Source: Amphiscolops sp. MND2022
Lineage: Eukaryota
Reading direction: 5' to 3'
NCBI GenBank assembly: GCA_964187785.1
Contig: OZ076409.1
Span: forward strand, 21,268,001-21,332,000
DNA length: 64,000 nt
Shown here: in pieces, positions 1 through 47,971 of the stretch
Layout: each line of letters opens with the position of its first letter
How positions within the stretch are numbered: position 1 is the stretch's first letter
Position numbers and translations under genes: made by a program
Notes under the pieces: generated by a model
What the model was told of the DNA's origin: nothing
The model's input: the letters and a program-made list of their open reading frames with translations, nothing else
Database searches by the model: none

Positions 1-874
1 TATATATTTTCAACACTTTCAACTAATATCATATTTCAACATATTTTCAACTAATAACAACTAGTTTTCAAATAGTTTTTTCTTTATCGAAAACATTATT
101 TTTCTTCCTTACATGCTGATGATACGTATGATACTAGTGGAGTCTCTCATAAATTTAGAAATGTTTTCAGGACAACCAAAGATTTTTTTTTGAATTTTTG
201 AATTACGTTTCGAGTTACTTGGTTTTTTCTCTGGAGTTAACGCTTTATCTCATAACGAGACAACCCGGTAAAATAGGTTTCAGGCACGCAGCTGTATGAT
301 CTCGGACATTTCAAAAAGTCTGTCGGAAGTTTGCAATTTGTTTTTTCTTCTTCTACCGTGACGGTCACTTCTGGTGGCTATCATAACTTTTGAAATTGTT
401 TTCATAATCATTAAGCCAGTATCATCGTTTTTGTGATTTGTTTCTGGTTTCTTGCTTAAACAGGTGTTGTATTTCAGATCGAAATGATACAAAAACCAAT
501 CATCACTCATGCTGGCATCAATTACGTGAAACTCATATTCCTGAACCTCTTGTTCCCGAATGTGTTCCTGCTGGAAAGCAATGACTGTCTTCTTCCCAAT
601 GATCGCAGGAAGGCTACAGATTTCCTCAAGAAGCATTTAAAAGGTTTATTTTCATTTATCAAAAACATACATACTACGTTTTGAACAATTACGTTTACGA
701 TCTCTAGTTAGTAACTAGAGATCGTAAACGTAATTGTCCAAAACGTGGTTGTGAGATGTAAGGAATGCACTTAAGCATAGCATTGTAGTTGATCGTTCGT
801 GGCACGTTTTGATTCATGATTGTTGCAGGACTGAACGTAAACTTCTCTGATGTATACAAGCCCCATGGATCCAG

Positions 875-1447
875 CAATTCCAATCTCTTTACCAGTTACT
901 TGATTTGCTTTGACAGAGAGAACTCAAAGATATTCCAAAGTGTAAAGATCTCTATGAGATTTATTACCAGTCAACTTTATGTCTTTTCGTTGATCGTGCG
1001 TTGACGCCATACAAATTGAAACTGGATATTTTACTCAGACTTTTTGAGAAGTGTGAGCTTCTGTCTCCATTTTATTACATGACAGAAGGAACTGAAAAAA
1101 GCCACCACACGGCAGCCAAAGACTACAATACGAAGACAATGCGTGATGGTGGCAATGATGCTTGGAACATGTCATCCAGTTATCTCGATATTCAGTTTTC
1201 CTTCTACCGTGCAATTGATTTATAATCTTCAAAGTCTTCGACACTTGAATCTTACCGGAAGTTGTATAGAAAAACCGACGTGACAAAGACGTATCTTGAA
1301 ATTTGCTGTGAACCCATTCCAGAACCGGAACTTGACTATCTTAGAACTGAAGACATGTTTAGAGGTATGCACTTTGTCATTCTTGGAACATATGGTCACC
1401 TGAAAGAAACTCAAGCGAGTCGTGAGAAGAAGATCACTGGAAATGGA
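875..1447 (+). repeat. 573-bp copy of 3335-3907 inserted into the transposase 5' exon
   Basis: Appears base-identical to 3335-3907 (offset 2460), including both nonsense codons. Confidence 0.95.
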
Positions 1448-3814
1448 CGTATTCAATTTATTGATAATATCTGCACCTCCATCATTGATTCCCTGGACGA
1501 CTGAAAGAGTTGGCTATTTACGACAATTTTTCCCTTCGTTGCCCATTCCAGGCTCAACCTCTTTTTTAACAATTGACACTATTTTTTCACAACAGTCATT
1601 GGAAACAGGCGTTTCGCTGCAGAATTTTTGGAGCTCTTCTTTGAAGACTATATCAGAATTAGAAATTGCATTGGGTCATTTTATTGAAATTCTCAAGCAG
1701 TTTTTCACAAGTCAAACTTTGAAAATCAAGAAAAAAAACACCTTAGTTCATAAACTTCTTCATTTATTTCTGCCAAACTTGTTTTGCCTTCAAAGGGAAG
1801 ATATTCAAATGGAGATTCAATGCCTACTTACTCTCAGTAATCCTCAGGATCTTTTAGTCAAAATACGTCGACTTATACAATGCCCTTTCATCAAATCCAC
1901 CATTCTCCCTTCAAGACGTGAACTTCAAGCAATCACATACAAATTGAACGAAGATTTCAGATCAAAACTTACTCCCAGAAGAACCCCCACTAGGTTCCGT
2001 GTTAATCTTGTTACTTTTGTCAGATTCGTTGCCTGCAATTTGTATAACAAGACCAGCTTAGACGGCTTGGGAGTCGACATTTATTGGTGATGCAATGTCT
2101 CGGGGGAAAAAGACGTCGTACGAATGGCCTTCCGAATTTTGCAAAGCGGCATCGAAACTGAGCAATCCTCAACCCATGTCTTCACGTTTGCTGTGTTTGA
2201 GGTGAGTCGTTCAATTTTTAATCTGAAAATTCGGAACTTGATTTCTTTTGTGAGCTACATCAAAATGTTTATTGAGAACCTAATTTTGGTCCCTGTTGTG
2301 AGCTACACTTAATAGTTTAGTGGTAACGCAAATCTAAATTTGGTCCCTGTCGTGAGTTACACTTAAATGATTACTAAGTTGTTGGAAAACCAATTTGGTC
2401 CGTCTTGAGCAGCACTCAAATGTTTTGTTGATATAATTCTAAATTTTTCCCTGTTGTGAGAAACTGGAAGTTGAAATATGAAATTTTGGAATGTTTCCCA
2501 GGGTAAAGATGCGCGAATTAACCTGGAATACAATCTCGCCATGTCAGAAGTGTTTGGACGCCCTGGATGGCTATACAACGAAACAAAGGCCTTGCATGAT
2601 GAAGGTGCTATACTGAGTTGTTCGGGTGATTCACCATTCCAACTGCGTGTTTTAAAAGGTGTTAGCAGTGATGTCTCTTGTCTGTCAAAGATGTGTCTTT
2701 ATGTCAGTGATCCTGCAGATATTTCGAATCCACCACTGAAACAGACAAAAAAAGACACCGCTGAATATAAGAGAGAAATGGAAGGAAGGGGGGTGATTCT
2801 TCCGTCAACTGTCGATTATGCTACTGGCCGAAGAACAGAACTGATCATTGACATCAACGAATGCATCCCAAAAGACTCTCTCATTTTTCTTAAATCCACT
2901 TTCAATACATGGCCTGATTTGCTGCATATGGTTGTCCGTTCAGTCGAAAGTGACTTGAAGTTGCATGTGGACTCGATGTTGCTGTTGAAAGACCAAGCAG
3001 CAATATGTAGACTCGAATGTAACATAACGGAACGGAACGAAATGTGAAACCGCCGAGATTCAAGTTGGAGATCGTTGAAAAACTCTGCAAGGCTGTATCT
3101 CTCAGTTTCAGAGACGCCGAAGTCATAATATCCGACTGCAACAGAATCAGCGACTGCGGCCGATTAGACAGCCCAATTTTTGAAGGTGTGTTTTCATTCG
3201 AAACACCTCATGTCTACAAAGCTGACCAAACAACCTCTACAACGTCTTATAACGTATTGATATCATTGGTTGATGGGTTGGAGACATCTTTCACAAAAGG
3301 AGTGGGTATTTCTGTTCGGAAACTGGCTGACCTCCAATTCCAATCTCTTTACCAGTTACTTGATTTGCTTTGACAGAGAGAACTCAAAGATATTCCAAAG
3401 TGTAAAGATCTCTATGAGATTTATTACCAGTCAACTTTATGTCTTTTCGTTGATCGTGCGTTGACGCCATACAAATTGAAACTGGATATTTTACTCAGAC
3501 TTTTTGAGAAGTGTGAGCTTCTGTCTCCATTTTATTACATGACAGAAGGAACTGAAAAAAGCCACCACACGGCAGCCAAAGACTACAATACGAAGACAAT
3601 GCGTGATGGTGGCAATGATGCTTGGAACATGTCATCCAGTTATCTCGATATTCAGTTTTCCTTCTACCGTGCAATTGATTTATAATCTTCAAAGTCTTCG
3701 ACACTTGAATCTTACCGGAAGTTGTATAGAAAAACCGACGTGACAAAGACGTATCTTGAAATTTGCTGTGAACCCATTCCAGAACCGGAACTTGACTATC
3801 TTAGAACTGAAGAC

Positions 3815-4147
3815 ATGTTTAGAGGTATGCACTTTGTCATTCTTGGAACATATGGTCACCTGAAAGAAACTCAAGCGAGTCGTGAGAAGAAGATCACTGG
3901 AAATGGAGGAAATGTTGTTTCCAATGTAGACATCATCAACAGAAGCAAGCTGAATTTTTTGAGTTATCACTATTGCATTTTACCAAATCGAAATTGTATC
4001 GACGCATTCATTAAAGGTCAACAAGGTAAAGAAAAAGCTGCAACGAAGGCGCTTTCCAATACGATACTCAGTAACTGGATTTACTTGAACGCTGAATTTG
4101 TAATCGCCTGTGTACAGAAGAAGTCCTTGATTGATCCCAAAGATTAT
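3815..4147 (+). CDS. BRCT domain, in frame with the transposase C-terminus
   Basis: MFRGMHFVILG...KKITGNGGNVV...HYCIL...LNAEFVIACVQKKSLIDPKDY matches the BRCT pattern F-x-G-x-x-F...I-x3-GG-x-V...thli...(W/F)-x3-C...Y. Confidence 0.7.
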
Positions 4148-4484
4148 GTTTTTGAAGTAGATGAGTCTGCGAGAGCCAAATTCAAAACGATGAAGTACAT
4201 ATCTATGGCCCCACAATTACAACGTCAATCAAACCCCCTACGACATGGTTCATTAACTTACCACACAGCAATGCGGAAGTACAAGAACGCACTAAAAAGG
4301 CCACCTTGAAGAGAAAACTAGACGACGTTTAATATCTGAAAATTTACTTATTTTATTACTAATTCAGTAAACAAGGTCCCTTTGACCGCTTCATTATCAA
4401 TTCAGTGCATATCTAAAAACTTACTTATTTTATCAGATAAGGTCCCTTTGACCGCTTCATTCTCAATTCAGTGCTATCTACTTG

Positions 4485-7400
4485 ATGAACCAAAGAAAAC
4501 GGCTGCGGCCAGATCATTTTCGCCAAAAAACTGCTGAAAAAGCACTACATTACAAAGTATTGTAAGGAGCAGCAAAAACGGAAAGCAGAAGGTCTCCCTA
4601 CCCGAATGTACCAGTACGGTTAGTCATTACAATGTATGTTAAAAATTGATCGACTTGTAACATTTTGAAAAGTCCAGTTTATCATGCCCGAAACGATAAG
4701 GGAAACTCAATGATTTTGAAAAAAAGTCTAGGTCTCAAACAAAAAGTGTGTTTTCATTCATGTTACTTCTATGTTACAGCAGCTGCAAAAGGCTTGACGC
4801 GGAGGCCTAACTTATGCTACGGCAGAGGTTGTGGAAAGTCATATGTTTACCCTTATGACTTGCGCGTGCACCTTTTGAAGAATCCTCAATGCCAGGAAGG
4901 AGCGAATGTGAGTGCCTGTCCTATTTTTTCCTCTTTAAGAACACATGTTGAATAATTTGATTGACCATTTGATTCTCGAAACGCCGTGTTTTACACGGTG
5001 ACAATGTGGCTGGAACTCCGAATGAGTCATATTATCGTGGCAACTGCTTAGGCTGCAGTTTCTTTGGGCTCCGATTCGTCTAGCAACGCTGACGAAATAT
5101 TCAGGCCAGAAGATTTCAACCACATTCCTTCTGATGTGTTTGGATCTGATTAATTTTTCAAGTTTGCGATGGAAGTTCCCCTCGACTACAAGTTTCCTGT
5201 AGCTCAATTTGAAGGCAACGTTGACGACCATGTCGTCAAATTCAATTCCCTGATGAGACACAGTGTGCCTCTGTTGTGGCGTGGAGGTGTCAACCATTGC
5301 CATGGTTTGAAGCTGCCTCAAGTGGAAGAACTCGCTTTCACTGAAGTTGTCCAAGAGCTTCTAGTCCCCCAGAAGCTACAAGCAAGTGCAGCAACCATCA
5401 ATGTCAAGTCGGCAAAAATTGGAGAAGTAAGTCTTTGGTAGAATTACTTTCAATTTGAAGCTTGTATTTTTCGTAAAATATCTGGAACAACTGCAATTTG
5501 ATCCCTGTCGTGAGCTCATTTTCCAACTTGGACAAGTCTTTGGTAGAATTACTTTGAATTTGAAGCTTGTATTTTTCGTAAAATATCTGGAACAACTGCA
5601 ATTTGATCCCTGTCGTGAGCTCATTTTCCAACTTGGACAAGTTGAACTTGTCGAACAAATGCATTTGAACTATTCTAACGAGCAGAAAGTTGTCCGTCTT
5701 ATTCCCGTCTTAGTCACTTTATGATCATTTCATTTCGGAGTCGTGACCTCAGTCTCGACGATTTCAAGCAGGAGCTCATCAACGCCGACAGAAGCAGCGT
5801 TTACTATCCTTTAAACGCTACAGACATCGCCATGCAGCCAAAGGTAAACAACATTGAATGAGCTCCTTTGATGGAAAACGCAAATCCACTGAAAAACGAC
5901 TTTTCCTTTTCTGTTTTTCACCAACCCCCTGTTTACTAGTAGTTGCGTACAAATTGGACATTGAGGATTTTGTTCAACATAATGCACATTGTTTTGAAAG
6001 AACTTCATCTTATATTGATTTTTTTGTCTTTTCAGTCCATCTACAGCGTGCCAACGATGATAAAAAAGTCGTCAGTGAACCACCTTGTGGACGAGCTGGT
6101 CAGTAAGTCAGCAGAACCGTTCTCAGTAGCGACTTCATACTACTTGCTGATCTCCAACGATGGTTGTCAAACAACTTGGCACACGGACTTCAGTTCAACA
6201 TCTGTCTTTTATACAGTCTTGACTGGGTCCAAGACCTTCTTTCCGGTTGCGCCAACTGAAAACAACATGAAGTTGTTCAATGCCTGGTCCAAACAAGAAT
6301 CCGACGACATGTGAGTTGAATTTTTTCACCAAGGAGTTTCAGCTTTTCTGTTCATCTATTTTTCTATTTTTTGCATCATTTTGCATCACGGGCCATCATT
6401 TTCGTACGTGTTTTCATTGAATTTGCGAAATTTTCAACTTTCAATGCACTATATTGTTTTTGCATTGCCGAAAATTTTAAGAATAGTTGCTTAGAGTTCC
6501 AACAGTTTTCGTTTTAGGCCAACATTTTTTAGATGCCACAAAAGACTGGAGGGGGGTTGCCTCAGGGTTATTCTTAATCCGGGCGACGTTTTCGCCATGC
6601 CGTCTCAGTACATCCATACAGTCCTCACAAGTGGAGACTCTGTGCCAGTACGGGCGAATTTCCTTTCAGAAGGTCATTCGAACCAGATCATGAAGGCGAT
6701 CATTGAAGAAGACTCCGTCAGGGAGCATGAGAAGTTTCCGGGCATGTTGGAAATGCTAGCTATTTTGATGCTCAAAGCATCAGAGAGATGCATGATAACT
6801 CCGGACTGACTTCCTTCGACTTCACAGGGTCATTGAGAATCGATATCAAGAAAGTGAAGCTGTTGCTGGGAGTTGTATTTTTTAGTTCACAATCGTTTCG
6901 AATCAAACTAAGTGATCGAATTAAGTATTTGTATAATGAAGCCGTGTTGTGACTCACAACAGGGATCAAAACTAAAATTGGTAATCATCAGGAATAATGT
7001 TGATGATGACGTTGTGGCTCACGACAGGGACCAAAATTAAAGGTGGTAATGATTACCAATTTTAATTTTGGTCCCTGTCGTGAGCCACAACGTTATCATC
7101 AACAATATTTGTTGATGATCAACAAAGTTGATCAAATAGCTTAGTGAGTTATCACGAGTTTTGTTTCAGATTTGCCCCGAATTCAGCAAGGAGAAACTCG
7201 TTTACAATATTTGCTCGCGCAAAGACTTCGTAAACGATGTTTGTGTCACCGCTTTCACGGAAACGGCCTCAAAAAAGGCATATCTTTTTTGCCCCAAGCC
7301 TTGCTTCAGAAGGAGGAACTGGTATACGAACGAGGACGGCGTGAAGGTCCACAAGGAAGCAATTTCTGAGGAGCGCCTCACTTTCTTGTGCCGAAGACCT

Positions 7401-7801
7401 GATGTTGACGAGCCGAATCGTGATGTTTTATTCAGCTATGAGGAAGCCATCACGTATGTTCACCCGCGACCGTCACAAACTGTCAGAGGTTTGCACAAAT
7501 TGCCGAAAAGAAAAACCCTCGTTCAAGACAGTGGTAAGTTTGCCTATTTTAGTTACATCCTGGTTGTTTCGTCTTAATATACATAGTGGTAATGTAAGTG
7601 ATAACATTCAACTCAAAACTGGTCACCTGGTTGAACATCCGTAAGGCTTACATTTGATTTTCTTATTTCCTAAAAAGACTTCAAAATGAAATTAATGGAG
7701 TTGTAATCGAATTCAATGTTTTTGTTTCAGAATTCAGACCATCTACTGATCGTTACGTTGCTTCGATCATGAGCCACCATGTCCCTGCATACAACTTGTA
7801 G
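4485..7801 (+). CDS. Spliced C2HC zinc-finger + JmjC (KDM2/KDM7-like) histone-demethylase-family gene, possibly damaged
   Basis: Exons ~4780-4907 (CYGRGCGKSYVYPYDLRVHLLKNPQC), 5163-5426, ~5740-5843, 6036-6310 (YLLISNDGCQTTWHTDFSSTSVFYTVLTGSKTFFPVAPTENN) and 6533-~6806 (LNPGDVFAMPSQYIHTVLTSGDSVPVRANFL); probable further exons 7170-7533 and 7731-7801. The Fe(II) triad H-x-D (6180-6188) and H (6615-6617) is present. The start codon and the TGA at 6807-6809 are uncertain. Confidence 0.8.
5429..5641 (+). repeat. 105-bp tandem duplication in a JmjC intron; each unit carries the 20-bp motif
   Basis: Two near-identical units beginning AAGTCTTTGGTAGAATTAC. Confidence 0.9.
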
Positions 7802-7969
7802 TTGCGTACAGACTGAGTTGTGCTTAAGAAGTTCTTGATCATTGTTAACTTAACATGTTGAACTTTCTTGTCTCCGAGTTATTTGTTGTGCTCAGTAAAT
7901 TGTACACTGTGGCTCGGTATAAACTTGTAGATTGAAAAACTGCTCTGGTTTTTTCGAATGACCGTCAAC

Positions 7970-8393
7970 CAGGGGTGTTAAATATTACATTGCAATACTA
8001 TTGCAATACTAATAAAACAATCTTTTGTTATTCTGAATTTTGTTGAAACAATAATTGCAATTATTGTGTCTATGAAAAAGATTGTTTGAAAAACCAATCA
8101 AATCAATTTGTTGATCAAATTAACATCCAAAAATTGTTCGTTGATCATTAGAAATGATTGGCATTCGAGATGCAAGGGCAGTTTTTTTTTGCGATTTTGA
8201 TATACAAAGTATTTATTAGTTTGACTGAAATGTCCGCCAAATTGGAAGTAGATGGTACCCAACGCATGTCTCCGAATTCTTTCCTTATTGTGAAAAATCA
8301 TCAATGTATTGTATTTGATAACGTTCTGGAAATAATTATTGTATACAATTTTATTGCAATTATTGTGACCTAGAATTATTTTTAACACCCCTG
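7970..8393. mobile_element. hAT-type MITE
   Basis: TIR CAGGGGTGTTAAA / TTTAACACCCCTG; 8-bp TSD CCGTCAAC at 7962-7969 and 8394-8401. Confidence 0.9.
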
Positions 8394-8684
8394 CCGTCAA
8401 CAACCGGTATTTTTTGTTCATAGCAAAATCAGCAAAACATTCAGCAAATTATTACGGCAAAGTCCAATTACCTCATAGTCTAGTTAAAATTTTTATTTTA
8501 ACTAATAATTTCATGGTAAAAAAAATTGTTGTTGACCATTATTCAATTATTAGGTTACTATTCATTCAATAAGTTAATGTGTACAATTTACCTTCGATTT
8601 ATAGTGCATTCAAAGTTTGTACAGCCTTGATCGTTTGTAAGTTTGCAACGTTCTGAGTTGTATCAACTGTGTTTTGGACAATTA

Positions 8685-8830
8685 CTGTCGGAAATGTCGA
8701 GTAGTTGTTCCCAAAAAAAGAGGGACATCTACCGTCAGAAATATCGGGTGGTTGTTTCCAAAAAAGAGGGACATTTACCGTCAGAAATATCGGGTGGTTG
8801 TTTCCAAAAAAATTATCAAATACCGTCAAA
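8685..8830 (+). repeat. Tandem repeat, ~46-bp unit, about 3 copies
   Basis: Recurring TACCGTCAGAAATATCGGGTGGTTGTTTCCAAAAAA. Confidence 0.8.
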
Positions 8831-9774
8831 ATCAATCATTGATGGCCGCCGGAAATCATCGGGTCATCGGAAGGGAGTTTCCAATTAACTTCGCCTTTGT
8901 GCTCCCTTGCATCGTATGTTTTCTCTTTCAGTACAAGCCGAGTATGAATAACAGAAGCAAAAGTCTCATTGTTAAGGAGAAAAACAGTGTTTAAGGTTGT
9001 TTAAGAATAGAAAAACGGCCAAAAGTCCCAATTCAGATTCAGTTGTCTGTAACTTTTTCAGTTTTCGTCTGAAGAATTTCAAAGTTAAATTAATGTAAAC
9101 TAGAAGAAAATTTGAGAATAGTTTCCTTCTGACAATTTTACAAATTTTCAATCGATTCCGAAAAAATCGAGCCTGAAAAAGCTCGGGGGATGTTTCCCTA
9201 ATCACAGTACTAGAGCTCTCAACCAATGAAATGAACATGTGGGCCTCAATTAGCCAATGATATCTATTCGTTCGTTTCGCCGGCGGCTGCTGTTTTTCAA
9301 AAGTTGATAAAAGTACTTCAAGTTGACTCAAGTTTGTTATGTTTGCTATAGACCAAGACTCAAGTTATTTCAATTATTCTTGACTCAGCAGCTCGGAGAA
9401 GCAACATGAATACAGGTACCTTTTGATCCCTGTCGTGAGCAAATATAAAACAGAGTTGCTAAACCAAATTTTAAGTTAAGTACCAGCTCTGAGAATCTGT
9501 ACCTGTTGTCAACTACAGTATCCTTCTTTTCTTACGATGTGTTTTCAGAAAGAAAACAACTTTCATTGAATATTGTATTTTGAATACAAAAATAGCACCA
9601 GTTTTATAATGGAATTTATGAACATTATAAAATCACAAAAAAATAATTGAAAATAAAAAACTTATCTCTTGTAGAGCAAATAAATAATGAGTTTTGAAAC
9701 TTTAAAGTTTCAAAAATAGTGGAAAAGTCGTTGAAATCATTTCAACGAAACTTTGAGTCCTTCGGGTTCAGACA

Positions 9775-10112
9775 TTATTTTAGCCTGAGCAGGCATCCTT
9801 GTTTCCTGCAGAGTGGGCACTTCACCCAAAGGGCACGATGAGTGCTTCCCCTGTGAATTTCAGGAATACAGGAATGCAAAAATGTAAAGGACACGCCTCA
9901 AAAAATTGATCAGTGAAAATTATCAGAAAGAAAAAGTGAAAACAGCTTCAATAACAGTTTTTCAAAGCAAAGTTCTGTGAAACTTACCTCTCAAGCACTT
10001 TGATCCAGGCTTGACGGCACTGATTGCATATCGCGTGTTTATCATCGAGAATCCAAATACGCGAAAAAATCTTCTCTCCACAGACAGCGCAAAGCATTTC
10101 CAGTTGGTTCAT
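9775..10112 (-). CDS. Two-exon 66-aa RING-HC-like finger protein
   Basis: Exon 1 10112-9988, GTAAGT..CAG intron, exon 2 9850-9775, giving MNQLEMLCAVCGEKIFSRIWILDDKHAICNQCRQAWIKVLERGSTHRALWVKCPLCRKQGCLLRLK*. Not in the supplied ORF track. Confidence 0.75.
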
Positions 10113-11367
10113 GTGTTTCAGGTGGTCAATAAGTACAATGATTTTTAAAAAGATATATCAGTCTTGTCACACGGTTGTTTGGAGATAGAATGGCCAACAA
10201 TCGGCCCGGGACATATAGAACACATCGTACGAAAGATTTGAACTTTATTTTGTCAGTATCTTGTTTCTATGTACGAACAACTTGCTTTGTTTCATGACTT
10301 GACAACTTGCAATTCCTTTTAATCTTTTCACTAAGCAACCACCTAGTTAATATATAACCTCTGTACCTGTAACAAATAAACGTCTCCACTTATTATTTGG
10401 TTTAGTAAACCAACGCGGTACTGCGGTAGTGCCACTTTCATTCAATTCAAAATAAGATGATAATCAAGATGATTCTTTCATATCAGTTATTATGTCGATA
10501 TAATTGTATTTGTACTTTGCGACCCTGTAGTACCACCTACTAATGTTAGTCAGAAGATTAAGTGTTTTTTCATGAAGTAAAATACTTTGTTCACATGAAA
10601 AGTTTCAATGGTTTCAAAAAATGAAATAAATAATACTTTACAGAATTGAATGACGTACATATGTATGTTTACAAAGTTTATGGAATTAACAAAGTTCATT
10701 CATTTATTACTACTAAAAAAATTAATAACGTACATATGTGGTTTTGATCCCTGTCGTGAGCAACATCAAGTTGTAACAAATAGTCTATACGAATCCGAAA
10801 CTCTGTTTGAGTCTAAAACTCTCTATCAATCTGAAAATCTGAAATGTATATTACCAAATCTCCAAGTACTTAAACGATTATTTAATTACCACTGCAGTAA
10901 ATTTAGAATTGAGGCGTGTTTAATAAAGACAACTGCCAGTGAAGGTGCCACAAGGCTGTTCAGTGAAGGTGTGTCGAAAACTGCTGAGAAGTCCTTACAC
11001 GATTAACTAATTACCACTGCAGGAAAGGGTAGATTTGAGGCATTTCAATTATGACTATTCAAATTTTGTCGATAACCGCAGCAAAGTCCTTACACGATTA
11101 ACTAATTACAATTACGAATTGAGGCTTTCTAATAATGACTTCTGAATTTCTGTCGAAAACTGAAAAGTCGATTCAGTCAAACCTTTTGCATCGATAGTGT
11201 CAACTTGCTTTCAATTCTATTAATATTGTCAACCTTTTTCTTTCGCAATCATCAACTTCTGTTCATCTTAATTTTATAATCAACTTCTGAACTTGTCAAA
11301 AATTTTTGACGAAAAGTAAAATCAGTCAATCAGATTATTCTTTCTCTCGCAATCATCAATATCTATC

Positions 11368-11805
11368 ATGTTCGATCCCGCAGCAATGACAATCAGGTCG
11401 TGTATTCGTCCAATAGATGAACTGATCTCAAACTGTGGACCACCACACAGAAAAAACGTGCGTTTTGCGGACTCAACCACTGTGATGACCAATCAACTTG
11501 AAACATCTCCGACACATCCGAGAGCTTGGAGGATCAAAAGAAGCGCACCTATTCCTGACAACCCACTCCCGCACCCACTCCCAACAACTCCACCCACTCT
11601 AATCTCCGGGAACAAAAAAACAGTAGTTCCGGGAACAAAAACAGTGAGGTTCCCTTTCATAGAAAGAGCTATATCACCGGATGGAGAAGTATCAGAGTCC
11701 GTCATTTCTTTAAAAGACTCGGAAACCAATCATTGTGATGAATACTGGAAACCTGGGGCTCTCGACGACAAGCCGTTTATAATGAACTGCCGAACAACAA
11801 GATAG
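11368..11805 (+). CDS. 145-aa Pro-rich ORF with two RVxF-like (PP1-docking) motifs
   Basis: Clean ATG-to-stop ORF in AT-rich surroundings; contains KNVRF and KTVRF, with RSCIR upstream. Confidence 0.45.
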   Translation: MFDPAAMTIRSCIRPIDELISNCGPPHRKNVRFADSTTVMTNQLETSPTHPRAWRIKRSAPIPDNPLPHPLPTTPPTLISGNKKTVVPGTKTVRFPFIERAISPDGEVSESVISLKDSETNHCDEYWKPGALDDKPFIMNCRTTR

Positions 11806-12510
11806 AATTTAAAGTTACTATTCTGCTCTTCTAGTACAGTTGTCACAACTGCACTAGAAGAGCAGAATAGTACAATAGTGTAAGAAATAAACTGAACCTT
11901 TTTTTGTAAGAAAAGAATTGGACCAAAACAAAACTTGCTCTGATTTTTGCTACCATCCAAGTTATTTTAAAATAAATTAAACAAACATTCTAGAGTTTTG
12001 TTGGGCACTTGAAATGTAGGTTTGCAAATAATGAAGAAACTTCCTAATTTAATTTTTCATTGATTGTATTTACTACTGAATGGGCATATGGGACATCATT
12101 TTGGACAATTTTGTAACATTTGCACTTAATTCGGAACTTTTGTTTATTTGGCAGGTACTTCTTCATTTACTAAAGCCATTCAACTATTTTACATCAAGAT
12201 AATTGCTATTATATAGTTCTGGAAAGGGGTTTTCTATTATTTAATTTCATTAACAATCTTAATACGTGGGAGAGAGCTATTTTTCGCAAAGATTGGGGAT
12301 TATGTTTTCGGTTATAGAATCTGCTAATTAAGGTGATTATACCCATTATCTTAGACATTCAATTGGTCCTTCCAGTCCCTTAATATCATGGCTAAAATAG
12401 AGAATGAACGAAATTCCCATGTAAAATGCTCTGTTTACATGCAGTCCAAACTATTTCTTACAAATAAGGGTTCAGTTCTTTTCTTACACTATTGTAACTT
12501 AAAATGTAAC

Positions 12511-13119
12511 CAGGGCTACCGAAAAAATAATGGATCAAACCATTATTTTTGATAAATAATTTGTTTCTAGTATATTTCCATTCAGATAATTTATTTCTGT
12601 CATTCGAAAAATACCACAATTTATTTCGGAATTTTCCATTATTTTAGAAATAAAATGAAGCTACAAAGCAAATAAAGGCAGACGCTACCGCCAAGGCAGC
12701 TTGCCGTAGGTAGGCTATTGTAAATTTCATTTCATTTTTATTCCATCAATTTCTAACATATGCGAACGGCTCTTTAGCCGTGCAAAACTGACCCAGGGAT
12801 ACTTGAGACATCAAAATATAGCATCAAAACATAGAGATATCAAAACAAAAATAAGCAAGCTTCAAGGTGCATTGTGGTCAAGCTATGATAGCTTGTCCCC
12901 AATGCACCTTGAAGCTTGCTTATTTTTGTTTATTAACAAAACTTTGTGGAATGTAAATGTTATTAATGAAGTAATAAATATGGCTGACAATTGAAATGGA
13001 TATAATTTATTTTTTTTTGCTGAGAAAATATAGTTATTCATGGGCATTAAATCTAAAATAAATCTATAAATTAAATAAAAAAATTGAAAAAAAACTAAAA
13101 TAAATTTTCGGTAGCCCTG
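12511..13119. mobile_element. hAT-type MITE
   Basis: TIR CAGGGCTACCGAAAA / TTTTCGGTAGCCCTG; 8-bp TSD AATGTAAC at 12503-12510 and 13120-13127. Confidence 0.9.
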
Positions 13120-13259
13120 AATGTAACATTGGTTCTAAATTCTGAATGTGGACGAAACAGTTTGGTTTCAGTATCTCAGTATCGGATGCGAATTTTACCT
13201 CCGGGGTAAAATTCGCATCCGATACTGAGATACTAAAGCCAAACTGTTTCGTCCAATCA

Positions 13260-13985
13260 GATTTTAGAACCAACCAACGAGTCGTCATCTGGAAGGACAA
13301 ATTTGATGATCAACTTGCAAAGCGAAAGAAAGATCGGTCGTCTCGATACGAACTTCTAGACCTATTACACAGTCTGAAATCCAACCTGTCAAACTTGAAA
13401 GCGAATGGTCAATGTGTGAACAACTTCTTGACTCAAGGACGAACTTGGTGGACGAAATTGAAGATCTTTCCTACCCACTTGAAAAAGGGATGGAGGAAAT
13501 TGAACCCTTGGTTTCGGCCCAGTTTAATGCCCAAAACTTCGCAACCCTCAGTGAGGAGAATTTGAAGCAAGAACAAAACAAATGCCTGGAACTTCAAGAA
13601 GGGGTTCAAGCTCAGAGAATCTCAATTGGCAAGTTACAGAAGAATATGTTGATGATTGAGGCCTTTTACAAAACCATTCAAAACTCACAGATTCAGAACA
13701 GCACCCAAGATAACGAATCAGTGGCTAGTTTGAGCGACCGCGTGATCGGAATCATGAACAGATACAACGCCATTTCTTCCAACGTGGAGGAAAGACCGCA
13801 ACAACTGTATTTCGACATAGAGGAGTCCTTACAGGTATTGAGATTGTGATTGTTATGTATCCGAAGAAACTGAAAGAACAGCTGAAGAATCTATCGCAAG
13901 TTAGAACAAATCTGGAGGACACCGGTGCCGAAATTGACAAGATCAAGGCCAACGCTGAGCAAATGTTGAAGAGTAATCCTCACAA
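13260..13985 (+). pseudogene. Frameshifted spectrin-repeat (spectraplakin/dystrophin-like) gene fragment
   Basis: Helical heptads LKQEQNKCLELQEGVQAQRISIGKL, LSDRVIGIMNRYNAISSNVEER and PKKLKEQL..RTNLEDTGAEIDKIKANAEQML are typical of spectrin repeats; split over three frames. Confidence 0.55.
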
Positions 13986-14762
13986 TCGAATTTATTATTT
14001 CAGAACAATATATTGTCAATTCATGATATTATTCATTTATTCAATAAAAAATTAATTGATATTTATTGATATTATTCAATGAAAAATTATTAACGTACAT
14101 ATGTGGTTTTGATCCCTGTCGTGAGCAACATCCAGAAAAGTTGTAATAAATAGTCTATACGAAGTTGAAACTTTATCAAACCGAAAACAGTAGTTTATGG
14201 AATACCGATCTTGAATTATTGAACTAAAAACGAAGTTTGGACCATGTGCCTTATCCTCCCTCAGATAAATACTGTTTCTTATCCAACAATACCCCCCCAC
14301 CAAGTCTTCCCAAACAAATGAAAGTAGGTCTCATAATGAAGGGGCGATTGCTTCATTGAACTTGGTAATTTTGGTCCCTGTCGTGAGCACTTCCTGTAGT
14401 CAGATTTACTGTTTATGCGATTTGATACTGTGTATGCGAATCAAGCAGTGTAGTTTTGAGTCGGCGTGTGTAGCTCACCAGTAACAACCCGTAATTACCA
14501 GAACTATGTGTAAATATGAGATGCACAGTGTAGTTAGTCAAATTGCCTAAACTAGTCATATGGTGTAAACTAGTCATTTACTGTACTGTCCAATGGTGTA
14601 AACTAGTCAACGTACGAAGCTGTGTCACATAGTGTAACGTCCTATCAATGCGCGTAATGTGTGACAAGTGTAAAACTTCCAAAAAAAATATTCGCGCTCT
14701 GATTTGACAAAAATCGAACTAGCAGGATTCTGCTAGTTCGTACCGGCATGTGTATCGTAATG

Positions 14763-15694
14763 TTCCCATACATACTCAATGGGCGACAAATCAGGCGAAG
14801 TTGGTGGCCAGGGAAGGGTGCGTATATCGTTTTGTGCCAAAATTTGGTTGGTGATATCAGCAGAATGCGGAGACGCATTATCCTGTTGGAAGATCCAAAC
14901 TTCTGGGTAGGACTGCAAGAACGGAACTACTTCGGGCACTAGGACTACGTCAGTGTATCGTTGAGCGGTTATTGGACCTTCTACAAAAACTAAATTGGTA
15001 CGGTAGTTGTGAGAAATTCCAGCCCAAACCGTTATTCCCCCGATATTTCAGCGATCAAAGTGCAGTTAATTTTTTTTGCATATCGGGTTTTGGGTTGACG
15101 ATAGATTTTGATCCGACCATCATGCTTGTGCAAGCAAAACCTACTCTCATCTGACCATAAGATTTGTTTCCATTGTTGATTCCACCTTCTAGTTTTGTCT
15201 GCAAAAATGCATCGCATTTTTTGTTTTGTTGACTGATTACAGGCACTTTGTGGGGTTTTCTGCATTGTAGACCATATTTTTTGAGTATTCTGCCAACAGT
15301 AAACCTGCATACGGCCCATTGGTTGCCGGACTCAACCGCTGTCGAAAATGGGTTTTCTTTATGGTTTCTAACAATTTGTCTTTCGCTTCGCACTAAGAAC
15401 ATCTTTGGTCGTCCCGGTCTGTGCCCATCTCGAACTGATCCAGTTTATAAATAGCGCTCCCAAGTGTTCTTAACTGTTCGTTATTGATATCCGTATTTGG
15501 TAGCAACTTGGTCAGAAGTTGCACCAAACTTAATTGCACTGATCAATTCGCTTCTTTTTTCACACAAGAAACTGCAACCTCAAAACGTGATAAAGTATTT
15601 GAATTGAATTGGTGGCGTGAATAGTTTAGTTTTTCAGCTTCTGTTCTAGCCTTTTCAAAACTTTGCTCAAAGCGCATATTTATGCTCACCACTG
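14763..15694 (-). mobile_element. Degenerate Tc1 element, 3'-truncated
   Basis: TA+CAGTGGTGAGCATAAA end at 15694; WSDESRF, FQQDNASPH and WPPTSPDLSPIEYVW motifs in broken frames. Confidence 0.85.
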
Positions 15695-15944
15695 TAAGGT
15701 ATAGTACTTAAGCGTCTTTCTCTGTCTCTCTCTACAAGGATTGTGGCTGGTATGGGGTTTTCTTTAGTTGCGGACCACGGATGTGTGTTTTTTCCCCTAA
15801 CATGATGACAGTCATTCCTACACCGAAAGGTGCTCGTGCATGGCAATGTCATCGGAATCGTATGACTGGGATCTGAGTCCGAAATTGACCTGGGATCTGA
15901 GCCCAAAGATCACGAAATGACAAAGTTCGAAAGTTCATAACGCT

Positions 15945-16310
15945 CATGAAGGCAAGTTTGGGTCTCAATGGCTCAACGTGGTTCCTTGCATGAACCTAGG
16001 ACTGAAACTTGATGATCAGCAACTTCGAATTTCAATTGGTTTGCGCCTCGGTGCCAACATCTGCGTTGAGCATACGTGCCACTGTGGTAAAAGGGTTGAA
16101 CGGGACGGTTTACACGGTCTTTCTTGCACCAAGAGTGCTGGTCGCTTCTCACGTCATGCTACTCTCAATTCTCTCATAAAGCAGACGTTGGAAGTCTCGA
16201 CTTGCCTTCAATGCTCGAACCACGTGGACTCTACCGAACTCATGGCAAACGCCCGGACGGTGTTACCATGTTTCCTTGGTAATTGGGTAAACAGCTGTTG
16301 TGGGATGTGG
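15945..16310 (+). pseudogene. Fragment of an RLE-type (CRE/NeSL-like) non-LTR retrotransposon C-terminus; second copy at 18815-19185
   Basis: WLNVVP..LRLG..CHCG..DGLHGLSC..RFSRHATLN (CCHC finger and RH motif) followed by EPRGL..GKRPDG..PW..WDV in a shifted frame. Confidence 0.75.
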
Positions 16311-17063
16311 GGCAGGGAAATTTCGTCACCAGCCATTTGGGCGACAAAAATTTCTACCCAATTCGGCGACAATAATGTCGCTCAAATGTCCCGTCAATTT
16401 TGTGCCCTAAATGCCGATGCGAAGCGAAGTGGAGCGACGTGCAATATGGCCTTGTGTAACGTCAGGCAAGGACGTTGCAGAAATTTTTGAATATTTCGAT
16501 CAAAAATTCGAAATGTGCGGTATCAAACAAGCACATTCAACATGGCCGACCCGGCAGGTACGAAAATCGTAGAGGAAGCAAAATTAAGGCAAAACACCAC
16601 CCAGAAGACCCCAGCCCCGACCCAGGAACGTGAAAGTCAGCGATGTCATCACCCAGAAGGCGAGAAAATCAGGAATTGTGCCATCTGACAGCAAAAAGAC
16701 AAGGTGTCGGCAGAAAAGTGCCAAATGAGACCAATGTGCCCCGAAGATGAGGAAAGTTGCCGGAAGCCAAACTGACGATCAACCCTGAACTGTAATGTTA
16801 TTGGGGCTTATCCTAGTGATTTATTACCGTTTACGGAGTGTTTGGATGATATTTGATCTACTAGATCTGTATTTTAGAACTTATTCTCCAAATACAATGT
16901 ATTTCAGTTAGACACCTTTTTAGACCTCGGAAGTATGTAGCAGGTGGCAGGAATGTATGTCAGTAACCTAGGATACGTTTTTACAGACTTGTGGGGCGTT
17001 TCCGGACTTTGAGAGTGCCGGCACGTCGCCTCGGAGCTCTAACTAGAGAAGCCTCCTTAGACG

Positions 17064-17623
17064 GGTAAATGGTCACTTGGCTTAATGCCATTTGGCTTAA
17101 AGTCATTTGGCTTAATACAATTGGTCACTTCGCTTGGTTTTTTTATGCTAAGTGTCTCGGGTATTGGTCACTTGGCTTAAAGTCATTTGACTTAAAACCA
17201 CTTAGTTGAAAACACGTGGCAGATTTTGTTGAATTTATCTTTATAATGTAGTCAGTGTATTATTATAACGTTTATCAAGTACCCCTCGGATATGTCCCCA
17301 TTTCCTCTTGTGCCCTGCGGCCCCTTGGGGCCGCTTATATTCCCATCTTATTAAGCGAGGTCAAGCAGGAGCAAAGACTTAGCGGGAACGAAGATCGTGT
17401 AGCGATCGTAGTGGGAGCTGGTCTTTGCGACGGTGAGGGCGAGCGTGCATACACCGCATATGTTCCTCATTATGATATTTCCGGGAGTTGACATATTTAT
17501 TCCTTGAGTTGAAATGGAGTTGGCCTAAATTTGTGGTCACTTGGCTTAAAATTTTTTAAGTCAAATGACTCGACGAAAAAATTAAGCCGAATGGTATTAA
17601 GCCAAGTGACTGGAAGCCAAGCC
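17064..17623. mobile_element. GG..CC-terminal MITE (MuDR-like); second copy at 19955-20508
   Basis: Inverted ends GTCACTTGGCTTAA / TTAAGCCAAGTGAC; TSD CTTAGACG on both sides. Confidence 0.75.
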
Positions 17624-18564
17624 CTTAGACGATAGAAAAGCCCATTTGGAGACCATTTTGGGATCAAAAACTAGTGTCTAGGGATGTAGTAAGACAACGG
17701 TCTCCTGTTTAAGCATCCTAAGCCTTGTCCCTCTTCCAAGATGTACGCAAAAAATTGAAGGGGGACCCTTTAGGGAAAAAAATTTCAGAAAAAAGTCTCG
17801 CAGTGCCGATAAAAATGAAATGGGGGATCCTTTGGTCTCGCCCGGTATGGTATGTTACGCGGAAAAACAGGAAAAACCTTTTTGGTTCAGTTTGCTAGGC
17901 CAAATAGTGCAATTTGATGCAATAATATTTTGTAGAACAATTTTGGTCAGTTCGTGTGGATAGAAAATGTCTCTATAATAGTCGCGTTTCACTTCATGAA
18001 GCGCCGACTAAAAATGGAACAAAATGGCAATAAAGTACCTAAATTTTTTTGCACATGACGAAGTCAATGTGCATTGCAGTCCAGCTAAGTAAGTTTTTTT
18101 TCCACTATAGTCAACTTCATTGGTCAACTTCCACAGTATTCTGCCAACAGTAAACTTGCATACGGCCCATTGGTTGCCGGACTCAACCGCTGTCGAAAAT
18201 GGGTTTTCTTTATGGTTTCTAACAATTTGTCTTCCGCTTCGCACTAAGAACATCTTTGGTCGTCCCGGTCTGTGACTATCTCGAACTGATCCAGTTGATA
18301 AATAGCGCTCCCAAGTGTTCTTAACTGTTCGTTATTGATATCCGTATTTGGTAGAAACTTGGTGAGAAGTTGCACTAAACTTAATTGCACTGATCAATTC
18401 GCTTCTTTTTTCACACAAGAAACTGCAACCTCAAAACGTGATAAAGTATTTGAATTGAATTGGTGGCGTGAATAGTTTAGTTTTTCAGCTTCTGTTCTAG
18501 CCTCTTCAAAACGTTGCTCAAAGCGCATATTTATGCTCACCACTGTAAGGTATAGTACTTAAGC

Positions 18565-18606
<42 letters not shown>

Positions 18607-21048
18607 AAGGATTGTGGCTGGTATGGGGTTTTCTTTAGTTGCGGACCACGGATGTGTGTTTTTCCCCTAACATGATGACAGTCATTCCTACACCGAAAGG
18701 TGCTCGTGCATGGCAATGTCATCGGAATCGTATGACTGGGATCTGAGTCCGAAATTGACCTGGGATCTGAGGCCAAAGATCACGAAATGACAAAGTTCGA
18801 TAGTTCTTAACGCTCATGGAGGCAAGTTTGGGTCTCAATGGCTCAACGTGGTTCCTTGCATGAACCTAGGACTGAAACTTGATGATCAGCAACTTCGAAT
18901 TTCAATTGGTTTGCGCCTCGGTGCCAACATCTGCGTTGAGCATACGTGCCACTGTGGTAAAAGAGTTGAACGGGACGGTTTACACGGTCTTTCTTGCACC
19001 AAGAGTGCTGGTCGCTTCTCACGTCATGCTACTCTCAATTCTCTCATAAAGCAGACGTTGGAACTCTCGACTTCGACTTGCCTTCAATGCTCGAACCACG
19101 TGGACTCTACTGAACTAATGGCAAACGCCCAGACGGTGTTACCATGTTTCCTTGGTAATTGGGTAAACAGCTGTTGTGGGATGTGGGGCAGGGACATTTC
19201 GTCACCAGATATTTGGGCAACAAAAATTTCTGCCCAATTCGGCGACAATTATGTCGCCCAAATGTCCCGTCAATTTTGTTCACATAGCCCTAGTGCCCTA
19301 AATGCAGATGCGAAGCGAAGTGGAGCGACTTGCAATATGGCCTTGTGTAACGTCAGGCAAGGACGTTGCAGAAATTTTTGAATATTTCGATCAAAAATTC
19401 GAAATGTGCGGTATCAAACAAGCACATTCAACATGGCCGACCCGGCAGGTACGAAACCCGTAGAGGAAGCAAAATAAAGGCAAAACACCACCCAGAAGAC
19501 CCCAGCCCCGACCCAGGAACGTGAAAGTCAGCGACGTCATCACCCAGAAGGCGAGAAAATCAGGAATTGTGCCATCTGACAGCAAAAAGACAAGGTTTCG
19601 GCAGAAAAGTGCCAAATGAGACCAATGTGCCCCGAAGATGAGGAAAGATGCCGGAGGCCAAACTGACAATCAACCCTGAACTGTAATGTTATTGGGGCTT
19701 ATCCTCGTGCTTTATTACCGTTTACGGAGTATTTGGATGATATTTGATCTACTAGATCTGTATTTTAGAACTTATTCTCCACATACAATGTATTTCAGTT
19801 AGACACCTTTTTAGACCTCGGAAGTATGTAGCAGGTGGCAGGAATGTATGTCAGTAACCTAGGATACGTTTTTACAGACTTGTGGGGCGTGTCCGGACTT
19901 TGAGAGTGCCGGCACGTCGCCTCGGAGCTCTAACTAGAGAAGCCTCCTTAGACGGGTAAATGGTCACTTGGCTTAATGTCATTTGGCTTAAAGTCATTTG
20001 GCTTAATACAATTGGTCACTTCGCTTGGTTTTTTTATGCTAAGTGTCTCGGGTATTGGTCACTTGGCTTAAAGTCATTTGACTTAAAACCACTTAGTTGA
20101 AAACACGTGGCAGATTTTGTTGAATTTATCTTTATAATGTAGTCAGCGTATTATTATAACGTTTATCAAGTACCCCTCGGATATGTCCCCATTTCCTCTT
20201 GTGCCCTGCGGCGCCTTGGGGCCGCTTATATTCCCATCTTGCTAAGCGAGGTCAAGCAGGAGCAAAGAGTTAGCGGGAACGAAGATCGCGAAGCGATCGT
20301 AGTGGGAGCTGGTCTTTGCGACGGTGAGGGCGAGCGTGCATACACCGCATATGTCCCTCATTATGATTTTTCCGGGAGTTGACATATTTATTCCTTGAGT
20401 TGAAATGGAGTCGGCCTAATTTTTTGGTCACTTGGCTTAAAATTTTTAAGTCAAATGACTCGACGAATAAATTAAGCCAAATGGTATTAAGCCAAGTGAC
20501 TGGTAACCCTTAGACGATAGAAAAGCCCATTTTGAGACCATTTTGGGATCAAAAACTAGTGTCTAGGGATGTAGTAAGACAACGGTCTCCTGTTTAAGCA
20601 TCCTAAGCATTGTCCCTCTTCCAAGATGTTCGCAAAAAATTGAAGGGGGACCCTTTAGGGAAAAAAATTCGAAAAAAAGTCTCGCAGTGCCGAAAAAAAT
20701 GAAATGGGGGACCCTTTGGTCTCGCCCGGTATGATATGTTACGCGGAAAAACAGGAAAAACCTTTTTGGTTCAGTTCGCTAGGCCAAATAGTGCAATTTG
20801 GTGCAATAATATTTTGTAGAACAATTTTGGTCAGTTCGTGTGGATAGAAAAAAGTCTCTATAATAGTCGCGTTTCACTTCATGAAGCGCCGACTAAAAAT
20901 GGAATAAAATGACAATAAAGTACCTATTTTGTTTTTGCACATGACGAAGTCAATGTGCATTGCAGTCCAGCTAAGTAAGTTTTTTTTCCACTATAGTCAA
21001 CTTCATAGGTCAACTTCCACTATAGTCAACTTTAGATAAAAGCCAAAA

Positions 21049-36600: not shown

Positions 36601-36790
36601 GATTTCCTTGTCACACTTACCCCCACCGCCTTCGATTAAGTTGATTCGTCTCTTCTTCGGAGTTAATAAAAATTTATGTAGATACTCAGCCAGTCCTTGT
36701 CTCGTGCATGGTACCTACGGGTTTAATTGAGTTGTAATGGAGCTATTCTCAACAAATAGTTAAAGCTACTGGAAAACTAAAAATCTTACA
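33660..36790 (+). repeat. 5' LTR (TG...CA)
   Basis: Colinear with 44601-47731; contains 5 x 29-bp tandem repeat at 36071-36209. Confidence 0.95.
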
Positions 36791-36791
36791 T

Positions 36792-36809
36792 TGGCGCTAA
36801 TGGGTGGGC
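36792..36809 (+). promoter_or_regulatory. Primer-binding site (resembles the complement of a tRNA-Asn 3' end)
   Basis: TGGCGCTAATGGGTGGGC begins one base after the LTR; tRNA identity is tentative. Confidence 0.7.
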
Positions 36810-47600: not shown

Positions 47601-47731
47601 GAGTTAATAAAAATTTATGTAGATACTCAGCCAGTCCTTGTCTCGTGCATGGTACCTACGGGTTTAATTGAGTTGTAGTGGAGCTATTCTCAACAAATAG
47701 TTAAAGCTACTGGAAAACTAAAAATCTTACG
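44601..47731 (+). repeat. 3' LTR (terminal CA mutated to CG)
   Basis: Colinear with the 5' LTR, with scattered substitutions. Confidence 0.95.
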
Positions 47732-47971
47732 TTTTTTCTATGTATATTTTTTAAATGCTGGAATAGAGAGCCGTTTTCCGCCGAACGGGAAAAATTTTTT
47801 GTTGGGACACAAAGTGCACGTAACTTTGACATTGTTGTTCTTCGTGAAGTACGACCAAATTAATGACTTGTCACCCATATCTGCAATTGTTTGTAACCTG
47901 GGTAAAAATACAATAATCCCTGTTAAAAGCTGTTTAGGTATGGCGTACGTAGTGAAAACTTTGTATAAATA

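Follow-up and report, generated by a model that had tools for sequence, protein, structure and literature searches.

The window considered here is the whole stretch of 64,000 nucleotides, animal DNA in which a GPS domain and elements of the Gypsy, LINE and Tc1 types are recognizable, and in which the observed/expected ratio of CpG is 0.95. Its left part carries, on the forward strand, a spliced transposase gene broken in several places and, downstream of it, another spliced gene with a JmjC domain.

The transposase gene and its lesions

What remains of exon 1 (1446-2201, forward strand) encodes an N-terminal helical region and the first catalytic Asp, and was delimited by its indels and by tblastn with relatives: the full-length proteins P0070, P0053, P0080, P0118 (55%) and P0034 match 1437-2231. 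A GT-AG intron follows directly before the G-K-D motif (2202-2501, forward strand), recognized from the sequence and from the break in homology, and holds three copies of a repeated 13-bp motif described below. At loci L004 and L006 an intron lies within one base of this position, and acceptor sites occur at the same place at L003 and L007. Exon 2 then encodes the catalytic core, with a predicted RAG1 fold (2502-3682, forward strand; 94-96% identity to the protein P0002, invariant columns, fold match to RAG1 459-1005). Its landmarks are the second Asp (2628-2630), a PDxxH motif and the Glu motif (3545-3556), and the sequence TPYKxK stands where the zinc His pair would be.

A TAA codon (3683-3685) comes next, near the end of the region equivalent to the RAG1 core. 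Beyond it, on the same strand, are a single BRCT domain (3815-4147), which has two insertions and no Ser/Thr phosphate pocket, and a conserved basic tail (4148-4332) with an R-Q motif and a last helix rich in K/R. The BRCT is described from its Pfam BRCT_2 match, fold, dN/dS and pocket column, and the tail from its conserved columns and the identity among loci. An earlier note on this DNA had the frame that carries the catalytic Glu running through a single TAA into the BRCT open reading frame (ORF), and the frame map agrees: the frame 3374-3685 contains the E-x-x-E-K-S-H-H motif (codons 3545-3547 and 3554-3556), the ORF 3686-4309 is in the same frame, and the TAA stands alone between the two. 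The note left unmentioned a second in-frame stop, the TGA at 3371-3373.

Other lesions emerge from four public DNA runs, which contain a relative ~92% alike to the window copy. Compared with the contigs of all four, the window gene has indels at ~2084, ~2108, ~3026 and ~4293. The first two form a +1/-1 pair that leaves the first Asp codon (2089-2091) out of frame; the third is a 5-base frameshift that, together with the TGA, breaks exon 2; the last is a one-base loss that shortens the tail, which in P0002 ends at the stop at 4330-4332. Codon 3683 is absent from the 40 of 470 substitutions listed between run contigs and window.

A 573-bp duplicate of 3335-3907 is inserted in the 5' part of the gene (875-1447, forward strand), 100% identical and with both stops included. 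Since contigs of three of the four runs (X2, X4 and X5) join 870 to 1446 by 29 other letters, the duplicate is an insertion in the window copy and does not attest the stop a second time; being a later copy of the same DNA, it was rejected as evidence that the stop is conserved. The transposase copy in the window is dead: it has the TAA, the TGA, the frameshifts and the inserted duplicate.

The catalytic core

What kind of enzyme did this gene encode? P0002's own model, built from 15 sequences, is poor (pLDDT 52), and its Foldseek list is nearly all BRCT, with no match reaching E 0.001. P0034, a relative of 868 aa that has no introns and is 36% identical to P0002, was modelled in AlphaFold2 with an alignment of 98 proteins (A4), chosen from the relatives by leaving out short and near-identical fragments, and its model is confident (pLDDT 87.8, pTM 0.86). 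Foldseek places RAG1 first for it (E 5e-8), followed by HzTransib and BbRAG1L, with the P element at E 0.009; RAG1 clusters are also the top ESM Atlas matches (0.76), which is a lead only.

In a structural search the best matches are the RAG1 core (PDB 6xny, 6oep, 6cij, 4wwx) and BbRAG1L of ProtoRAG (6b40), with Z 13.4-15.6 and rmsd ~4 over 413-418 residues of RAG1 459-1007. Taken separately, RAG1 gives Z 14.5-15.6 with rmsd ~4 (4.3) over 414-418 residues, pairing residues 103-667 of the model with RAG1 459-1005; BbRAG1L gives Z 13.4, HzTransib (6pqx, 6pqn) Z 10.5-13.8 and the P element Z 8.1. The predicted fold of this relative is thus that of the RAG1 core.

The putative catalytic residues tell the same story. 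In P0034 numbering, D206 is found in 32 of 32 proteins, D287 in 57 of 57 and E617 in 74 of 77, and the DxWGD column is invariant (32/32). By the order of the motifs and the customary RAG1 numbering, these presumably correspond to D600, D708 and E962 of RAG1. The sequences are thus predicted to share the D-D-E triad of RAG1 and RAG1L, with the three nearly invariant acidic motifs following one another as they do there, at an overall identity of 10-12%.

The zinc site is where the family departs from RAG1. According to Kojima 2025 (PMC12730594), the motifs C(2)C and H(3-4)H, located between the second Asp and the Glu, are common to RAG1 and to all listed lineages of the CMCT clade (EnSpm/CACTA, Mirage, Chapaev, Transib, Plavaka, ESTA, Lanisha), which have a RAG1-like core and, in some, cargo genes. 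The present family is without these ligands of ZnC2 and ZnH2: at the expected places CxxC occurs in 1 of 59 proteins and H(3-4)H in 7 of 76, while anywhere between the second Asp and the Glu they occur in 4 and 7 of 39 members, and none is conserved. The Cx2Cx3GHx4C motif of the invertebrate RAG1L tail (CTT1) is found in none of the 56 members having more than 150 residues after the core, and neither P0002-P0004 nor 48 relatives match any Pfam family of the CMCT lineages.

Transib, too, differs from this family in several respects. The two share the fold, a stand-alone transposase gene and a C-terminal tail specific to the lineage; the present protein is about twice as long, has no zinc motifs, carries a BRCT in place of CTT1/CTT2, and seemingly belongs to a large multi-gene element in which the CAC ends and 5-bp target duplications of Transib were not seen. 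Compared with RAG1 and RAG1L, the BRCT and basic tail are again the difference, and no RSS-like ends were found in the window or the loci. With a RAG1/Transib-like fold, and with the zinc and tail motifs missing, the enzyme would work like RAG1 and Transib by its fold while being a member of neither by these tests.

The BRCT domain

The earlier note had placed a BRCT domain at 3815-4147. Pfam BRCT_2 matches this segment with E 1.8e-4 and 22.2 bits (3809-4153 gives E 7.9e-5), and the Pfam family BRCT matches with E 0.009; because both scores are under the curated cut-offs (27.3 for BRCT_2, 21.3 for BRCT), the call is weak when made from the window sequence alone. The assignment becomes firm through the fold of P0034's model, of which residues 712-827 match the BRCTs of MDC1, 53BP1, BRCA1 and XRCC1 with Z 10.3-11.0 and rmsd 2.3-3.3 over 90-102 residues (MDC1: Z 10.6, rmsd 2.5). 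A BRCT cluster is the top ESM Atlas match (0.87, a lead only). The rotavirus protein NSP2, matched by the profile of the region with E 0.002 across a 61-residue gap, was dismissed as a chance match, BRCT being the outcome of the fold search.

Among known BRCTs, the single ones of PARP1, XRCC1, Rev1 and ligase IV and the tandem ones of BRCA1, MDC1 and 53BP1 share the fold with Z 8-11, together with the Gly of strand beta-1, the GG turn and the aromatic-x3-Cys helix. The domain described here differs from them in that it occurs singly, has two insertions, carries Tyr or Phe in place of the usual Trp (47/50), is without the pocket Ser/Thr, and is fused to a DDE transposase.

A fusion kept across the family

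A phmmer search of 1.84 billion representatives gave 199 matches with E<=0.001, most of them 25-40% identical. The Glu motif is present in 75 proteins of alignment A4; in 59 of these the protein extends into the BRCT's first half, and in 48 it covers both, a count in which fused matches are favoured by a query that itself contained the BRCT. The other 16 end 0-140 residues past the motif. One of these ends, that of P0037, is a frameshift, as its cluster mates P0207 and P0198 span the whole BRCT; P0099 (725 aa), which ends 55 residues past the motif, could be a true BRCT-less form.

A scan of DNA with the core motif only gave 11 loci: in eight the reading frame of the Glu motif stays open into the BRCT, two are broken and have BRCT homology downstream, and for one the contig stops first. 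Pfam BRCT lies above the gathering cut-off in 3 of 34 relatives, and 20 of the 34 have some match with E<=0.5.

The open loci L003, L006 and L007 point to purifying selection on the domain: dN/dS of the BRCT is ~0.13-0.15, with dS near-saturated. Amino acid identity among them is 59-74% in the BRCT and 77-80% in the core, and the 44 codons behind the BRCT are again core-like (75-84%); the tail has a Gln column kept in 46 of 47 proteins, plus K/R columns.

The family members come from marine and environmental DNA, and three marine metagenome runs contain related DNA, as does one coded organism. P0002 alone had no match in solved-structure sequences or metagenome contigs, query A3 none in viral contigs and query A5 none in prokaryote genomes, and none of 20 relatives looked up bears an informative name. 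A 48-residue bacterial member of a cluster was treated as unrelated.

The fusion of a RAG1-fold transposase with a BRCT is real and family-wide, and is seen here in a dead copy. We take it as nearly certain that the protein is built as described, that the fusion is spread through the family, that the BRCT is under purifying selection, and that the window copy bears these lesions.

The stop between core and BRCT

Is the TAA a lesion, or does it mark the end of a gene? Among longer proteins, the BRCT ORF found three matches in 648 candidates. The best is P0002, an open frame of 616 residues, 96% identical, which spans exon 2 starting at the G-K-D motif and takes in core, BRCT and tail. Its cluster comprises 216 proteins, of which 40 were read and 15 are listed; among these 15, four span the full length and are 99% alike; the remaining ones have late starts or differing ends. 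Eleven of the 15 reach the stop site: ten have Cys there, and P0009 ends there. P0009 is otherwise an open exon-2 protein, and its end, at the stop codon of the window, is near the end of the RAG1-core equivalent; it could be a natural core-only form or share a lesion with the window copy.

The earlier note had proposed looking for a sense codon at 3683 in other copies, a stop in all of them being the sign of separate genes. Among stored proteins showing the motif, a residue is present at the site in 27 of the 28 other than the window's own (Cys in 16, Ser in 10, Leu in 1), so the stop is not universal, and the shifted-frame proteins P0029, P0035 and P0162 imply TGT at this codon. Judged by these copies, the TAA is a lesion of a dead copy, common to at least one other copy or allele, P0009, and not thereby general.

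That core and BRCT are separate genes, or that a programmed stop yields a core-only enzyme, is highly improbable. Such a reading could appeal to P0009, open up to the same codon, and to the place of the stop close to the end of the core-equivalent region; the 27 proteins that read through largely refute it, the window copy has four other disabling changes, and the duplicate at 875-1447 lends a programmed stop no support.

The element around the gene

The locus is best explained as one dead copy among the many of a cut-and-paste DNA transposon in an animal genome, with a transposase that is a single protein encoded by two exons. Its presumed mobility rests on copy number and decay, because neither terminal inverted repeats nor target duplications turned up: inverted-repeat searches of the window and of L001-L004, L006 and L007 gave no element ends, and none of the eight heptamer-like words in window 1-16000 is paired. 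No RAG2 or kelch match in Pfam was obtained among the ORFs scanned, and the ends of the element were not located.

One may ask instead whether the gene is a domesticated, single-copy host gene for recombination or repair, its broken relatives being pseudogenes or alleles. The missing ends would suit this, as would the conserved place of the intron and, in other samples, exons that are conserved while introns are replaced. Yet clusters of 216 and 128 members with many different truncations, several diverged and partly broken loci among L003-L011, and a window copy that is itself dead and lies amid other transposons make domestication decidedly unlikely.

The downstream spliced gene (4503-7915, forward strand) was traced from weak Pfam matches, translations and run contigs. 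It encodes a C2H2-like finger and a JmjC domain (zf-C2H2 E 0.004, JmjC E 0.011, JmjC_2 E 0.023, all weak) in which the iron-binding residues HxD...H are intact. A single contig of run X5 covers the transposase and 4503-4797, the first exon of the JmjC gene, whose exons are covered in all four runs with introns that differ. A search with one of the JmjC exons gave no longer relative. The gene is probably cargo of the same element, and would encode a putative histone demethylase.

The 13-bp motif TCCCTGTYGTGAG has 12 copies between 2290 and 14387, mostly in introns and spacers, and none in the other 49.6 kb of the window. Its span, together with the JmjC linkage, suggests one element of at least 14 kb, and the copies could be putative binding sites of the transposase. 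At 14524-14530, just past the last copy, stands a CACAGTG heptamer, a candidate right end with no partner within the window. Loci L007, L004 and L001 have interspersed repeats of their own around the transposase gene.

Near-perfect hairpins, with arms of 20-58 bp and loops of 1-5 bases, precede genes of the putative element (window 673-749, 6993-7109, 11816-11872, 12843-12931 and 13149-13255; L006 2071-2166). The span marked by the motif contains further ORF pieces, i.e. a Cys-rich one at 9700-10200, a Pro-rich one at 11320-11802 and a coiled-coil-like one at 13146-13960, the last two with no Pfam match. At L006, an ORF with a PLAC8 domain (5886-6887, reverse strand) is convergent with the transposase gene.

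The window also has a 2.9-kb tandem duplication (15284-21020, 96%) and two 3.1-kb direct repeats (33660-36792 and 44601-47733, 97%). These repeats surround a Gypsy-type gag-pol and, as LTRs, would be unusually long. An open frame of 1403 residues at 56627-60835 has no Pfam match and is followed by an exon with a GPS motif (61586-62017).

What the BRCT may do

RAG1-type transposases vary at their C-terminal tail, which decides the grip on DNA ends. In the present family the BRCT begins after the match to the RAG1 core ends, i.e. at the position held by CTT1 in RAG1L and by CTT2 in subgroup II Transib. According to PMC9435367 and PMC7204232, CTT1 of RAG1L is critical for binding the TIR, and CTT2 of subgroup II Transib is thought to contact ZnB; according to PMC13320883, the single BRCT of PARP1 binds undamaged DNA.

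The reading we prefer, with a probability of about 0.5, is that the BRCT and tail do the job of the RAG1L/Transib C-terminal tail, inside the transpososome. Judging from its fold, the core would cut the ends of the element by chemistry of the RAG/Transib type: a nick, a hairpin on the flank, then strand transfer. The BRCT and tail would grip transposon-end or subterminal DNA and brace the core, whose zinc site has been lost; they would be a module that faces DNA or the transpososome, not a reader of phospho-marks at breaks.

This role is favoured because the BRCT sits at the place of CTT1/CTT2, a conserved basic helix comes next, the domain is confidently placed (the whole-chain pTM of 0.86 fits a fixed position), and the BRCT of PARP1, which aligns weakly (E 0.3) and has the same Leu-Gly at the pocket, binds undamaged DNA. 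Several points count against it: the BRCT of P0002 is only mildly basic (14 K/R vs 9 D/E) and the core is better conserved than the domain; the structural matches tied in Z include BRCTs that dock proteins (XRCC1-Lig3) as well as ones with a pocket (53BP1); and P0009 and P0099 have no BRCT after the core. The confident model, moreover, is that of P0034, a relative at 36% identity, not of P0002 itself.

The earlier note had a different proposal: the BRCT recruits repair factors or targets breaks by binding phosphopeptides or poly(ADP-ribose) (PAR). According to PMC3759693, the phosphate pocket comprises S1655 and K1702 in BRCA1 and T1898 and K1936 in MDC1, and PAR-binding BRCTs, those of ligase IV and XRCC1, rely on the same residues. 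The pocket column was assigned by the beta1-Gly motif, the residue before the Gly taking the place of BRCA1 S1655 and MDC1 T1898. In the family this residue is Ser or Thr in only 2 of 67 proteins and a hydrophobic I, L or V in 54; the column in alpha-2 has Lys in 14 of 52; and each protein has one BRCT, with no tandem. These counts weigh against the proposal.

Binding of phosphopeptides, PAR or 5'-phosphate ends by a canonical pocket, and with it break targeting or NHEJ recruitment, is accordingly an unlikely function, even with a true BRCT fold, a beta-1 Gly kept in 63 of 71, a Ser, Thr or Asn often next after it, and K or R in 18 of 52 at alpha-2.

Perhaps the domain is a docking surface that needs no phosphorylation, in the manner of XRCC1 BRCT2 with ligase III. 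It would bring to the transpososome a host end-joining or chromatin factor, or a partner from the element such as the JmjC protein; hairpin-ended donor breaks and integration gaps would then be repaired, or the element would escape silencing. Z values of 10.5-10.8 to XRCC1 BRCT2 and to the second repeats of BRCA1 and MDC1 are consistent with docking. So are the BRCTs of ligase IV and PARP1 as best profile matches (weak, E 0.09-0.3), the purifying selection on the domain, and the linkage of the JmjC gene on one contig of another sample. A constant host partner, however, fits poorly with surface columns that vary widely across the family, and the flanking ORFs of L001, L003, L004, L006, L007, L008 and L011, on short contigs, include no JmjC neighbour.

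Docking is a tentative possibility, and so is the wider picture that can be drawn from it: a zinc-free sister lineage of RAG1/Transib whose captured BRCT docks a host end-joining or chromatin factor and couples cutting to repair, possibly in an element of at least 14 kb with a JmjC demethylase. If true, the element would have solved independently the hand-over problem posed to RAG in V(D)J joining.

Outlook

Has such a protein been described before? In the open full-text literature on transposases, RAG1 or Transib with a BRCT or with zinc loss, the titles and abstracts listed mention no such fusion. The main text of PMC7204232 and PMC12730594 does not contain the word "BRCT", and none was noticed in PMC9435367. 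The family could be filed in Repbase or in the supplement of a paper under another name.

A lineage that lacks the zinc site shared by the others and carries a repair-type BRCT at its tail adds breadth to the family that gave rise to the antibody-gene recombinase. How breaks are handed over to repair is still poorly understood, for RAG and for transposases alike. Near-identical open copies of this transposase exist, which makes the matter experimentally tractable: the BRCT can be examined for DNA binding, as the preferred transpososome role would have it, versus the handing of breaks to repair.
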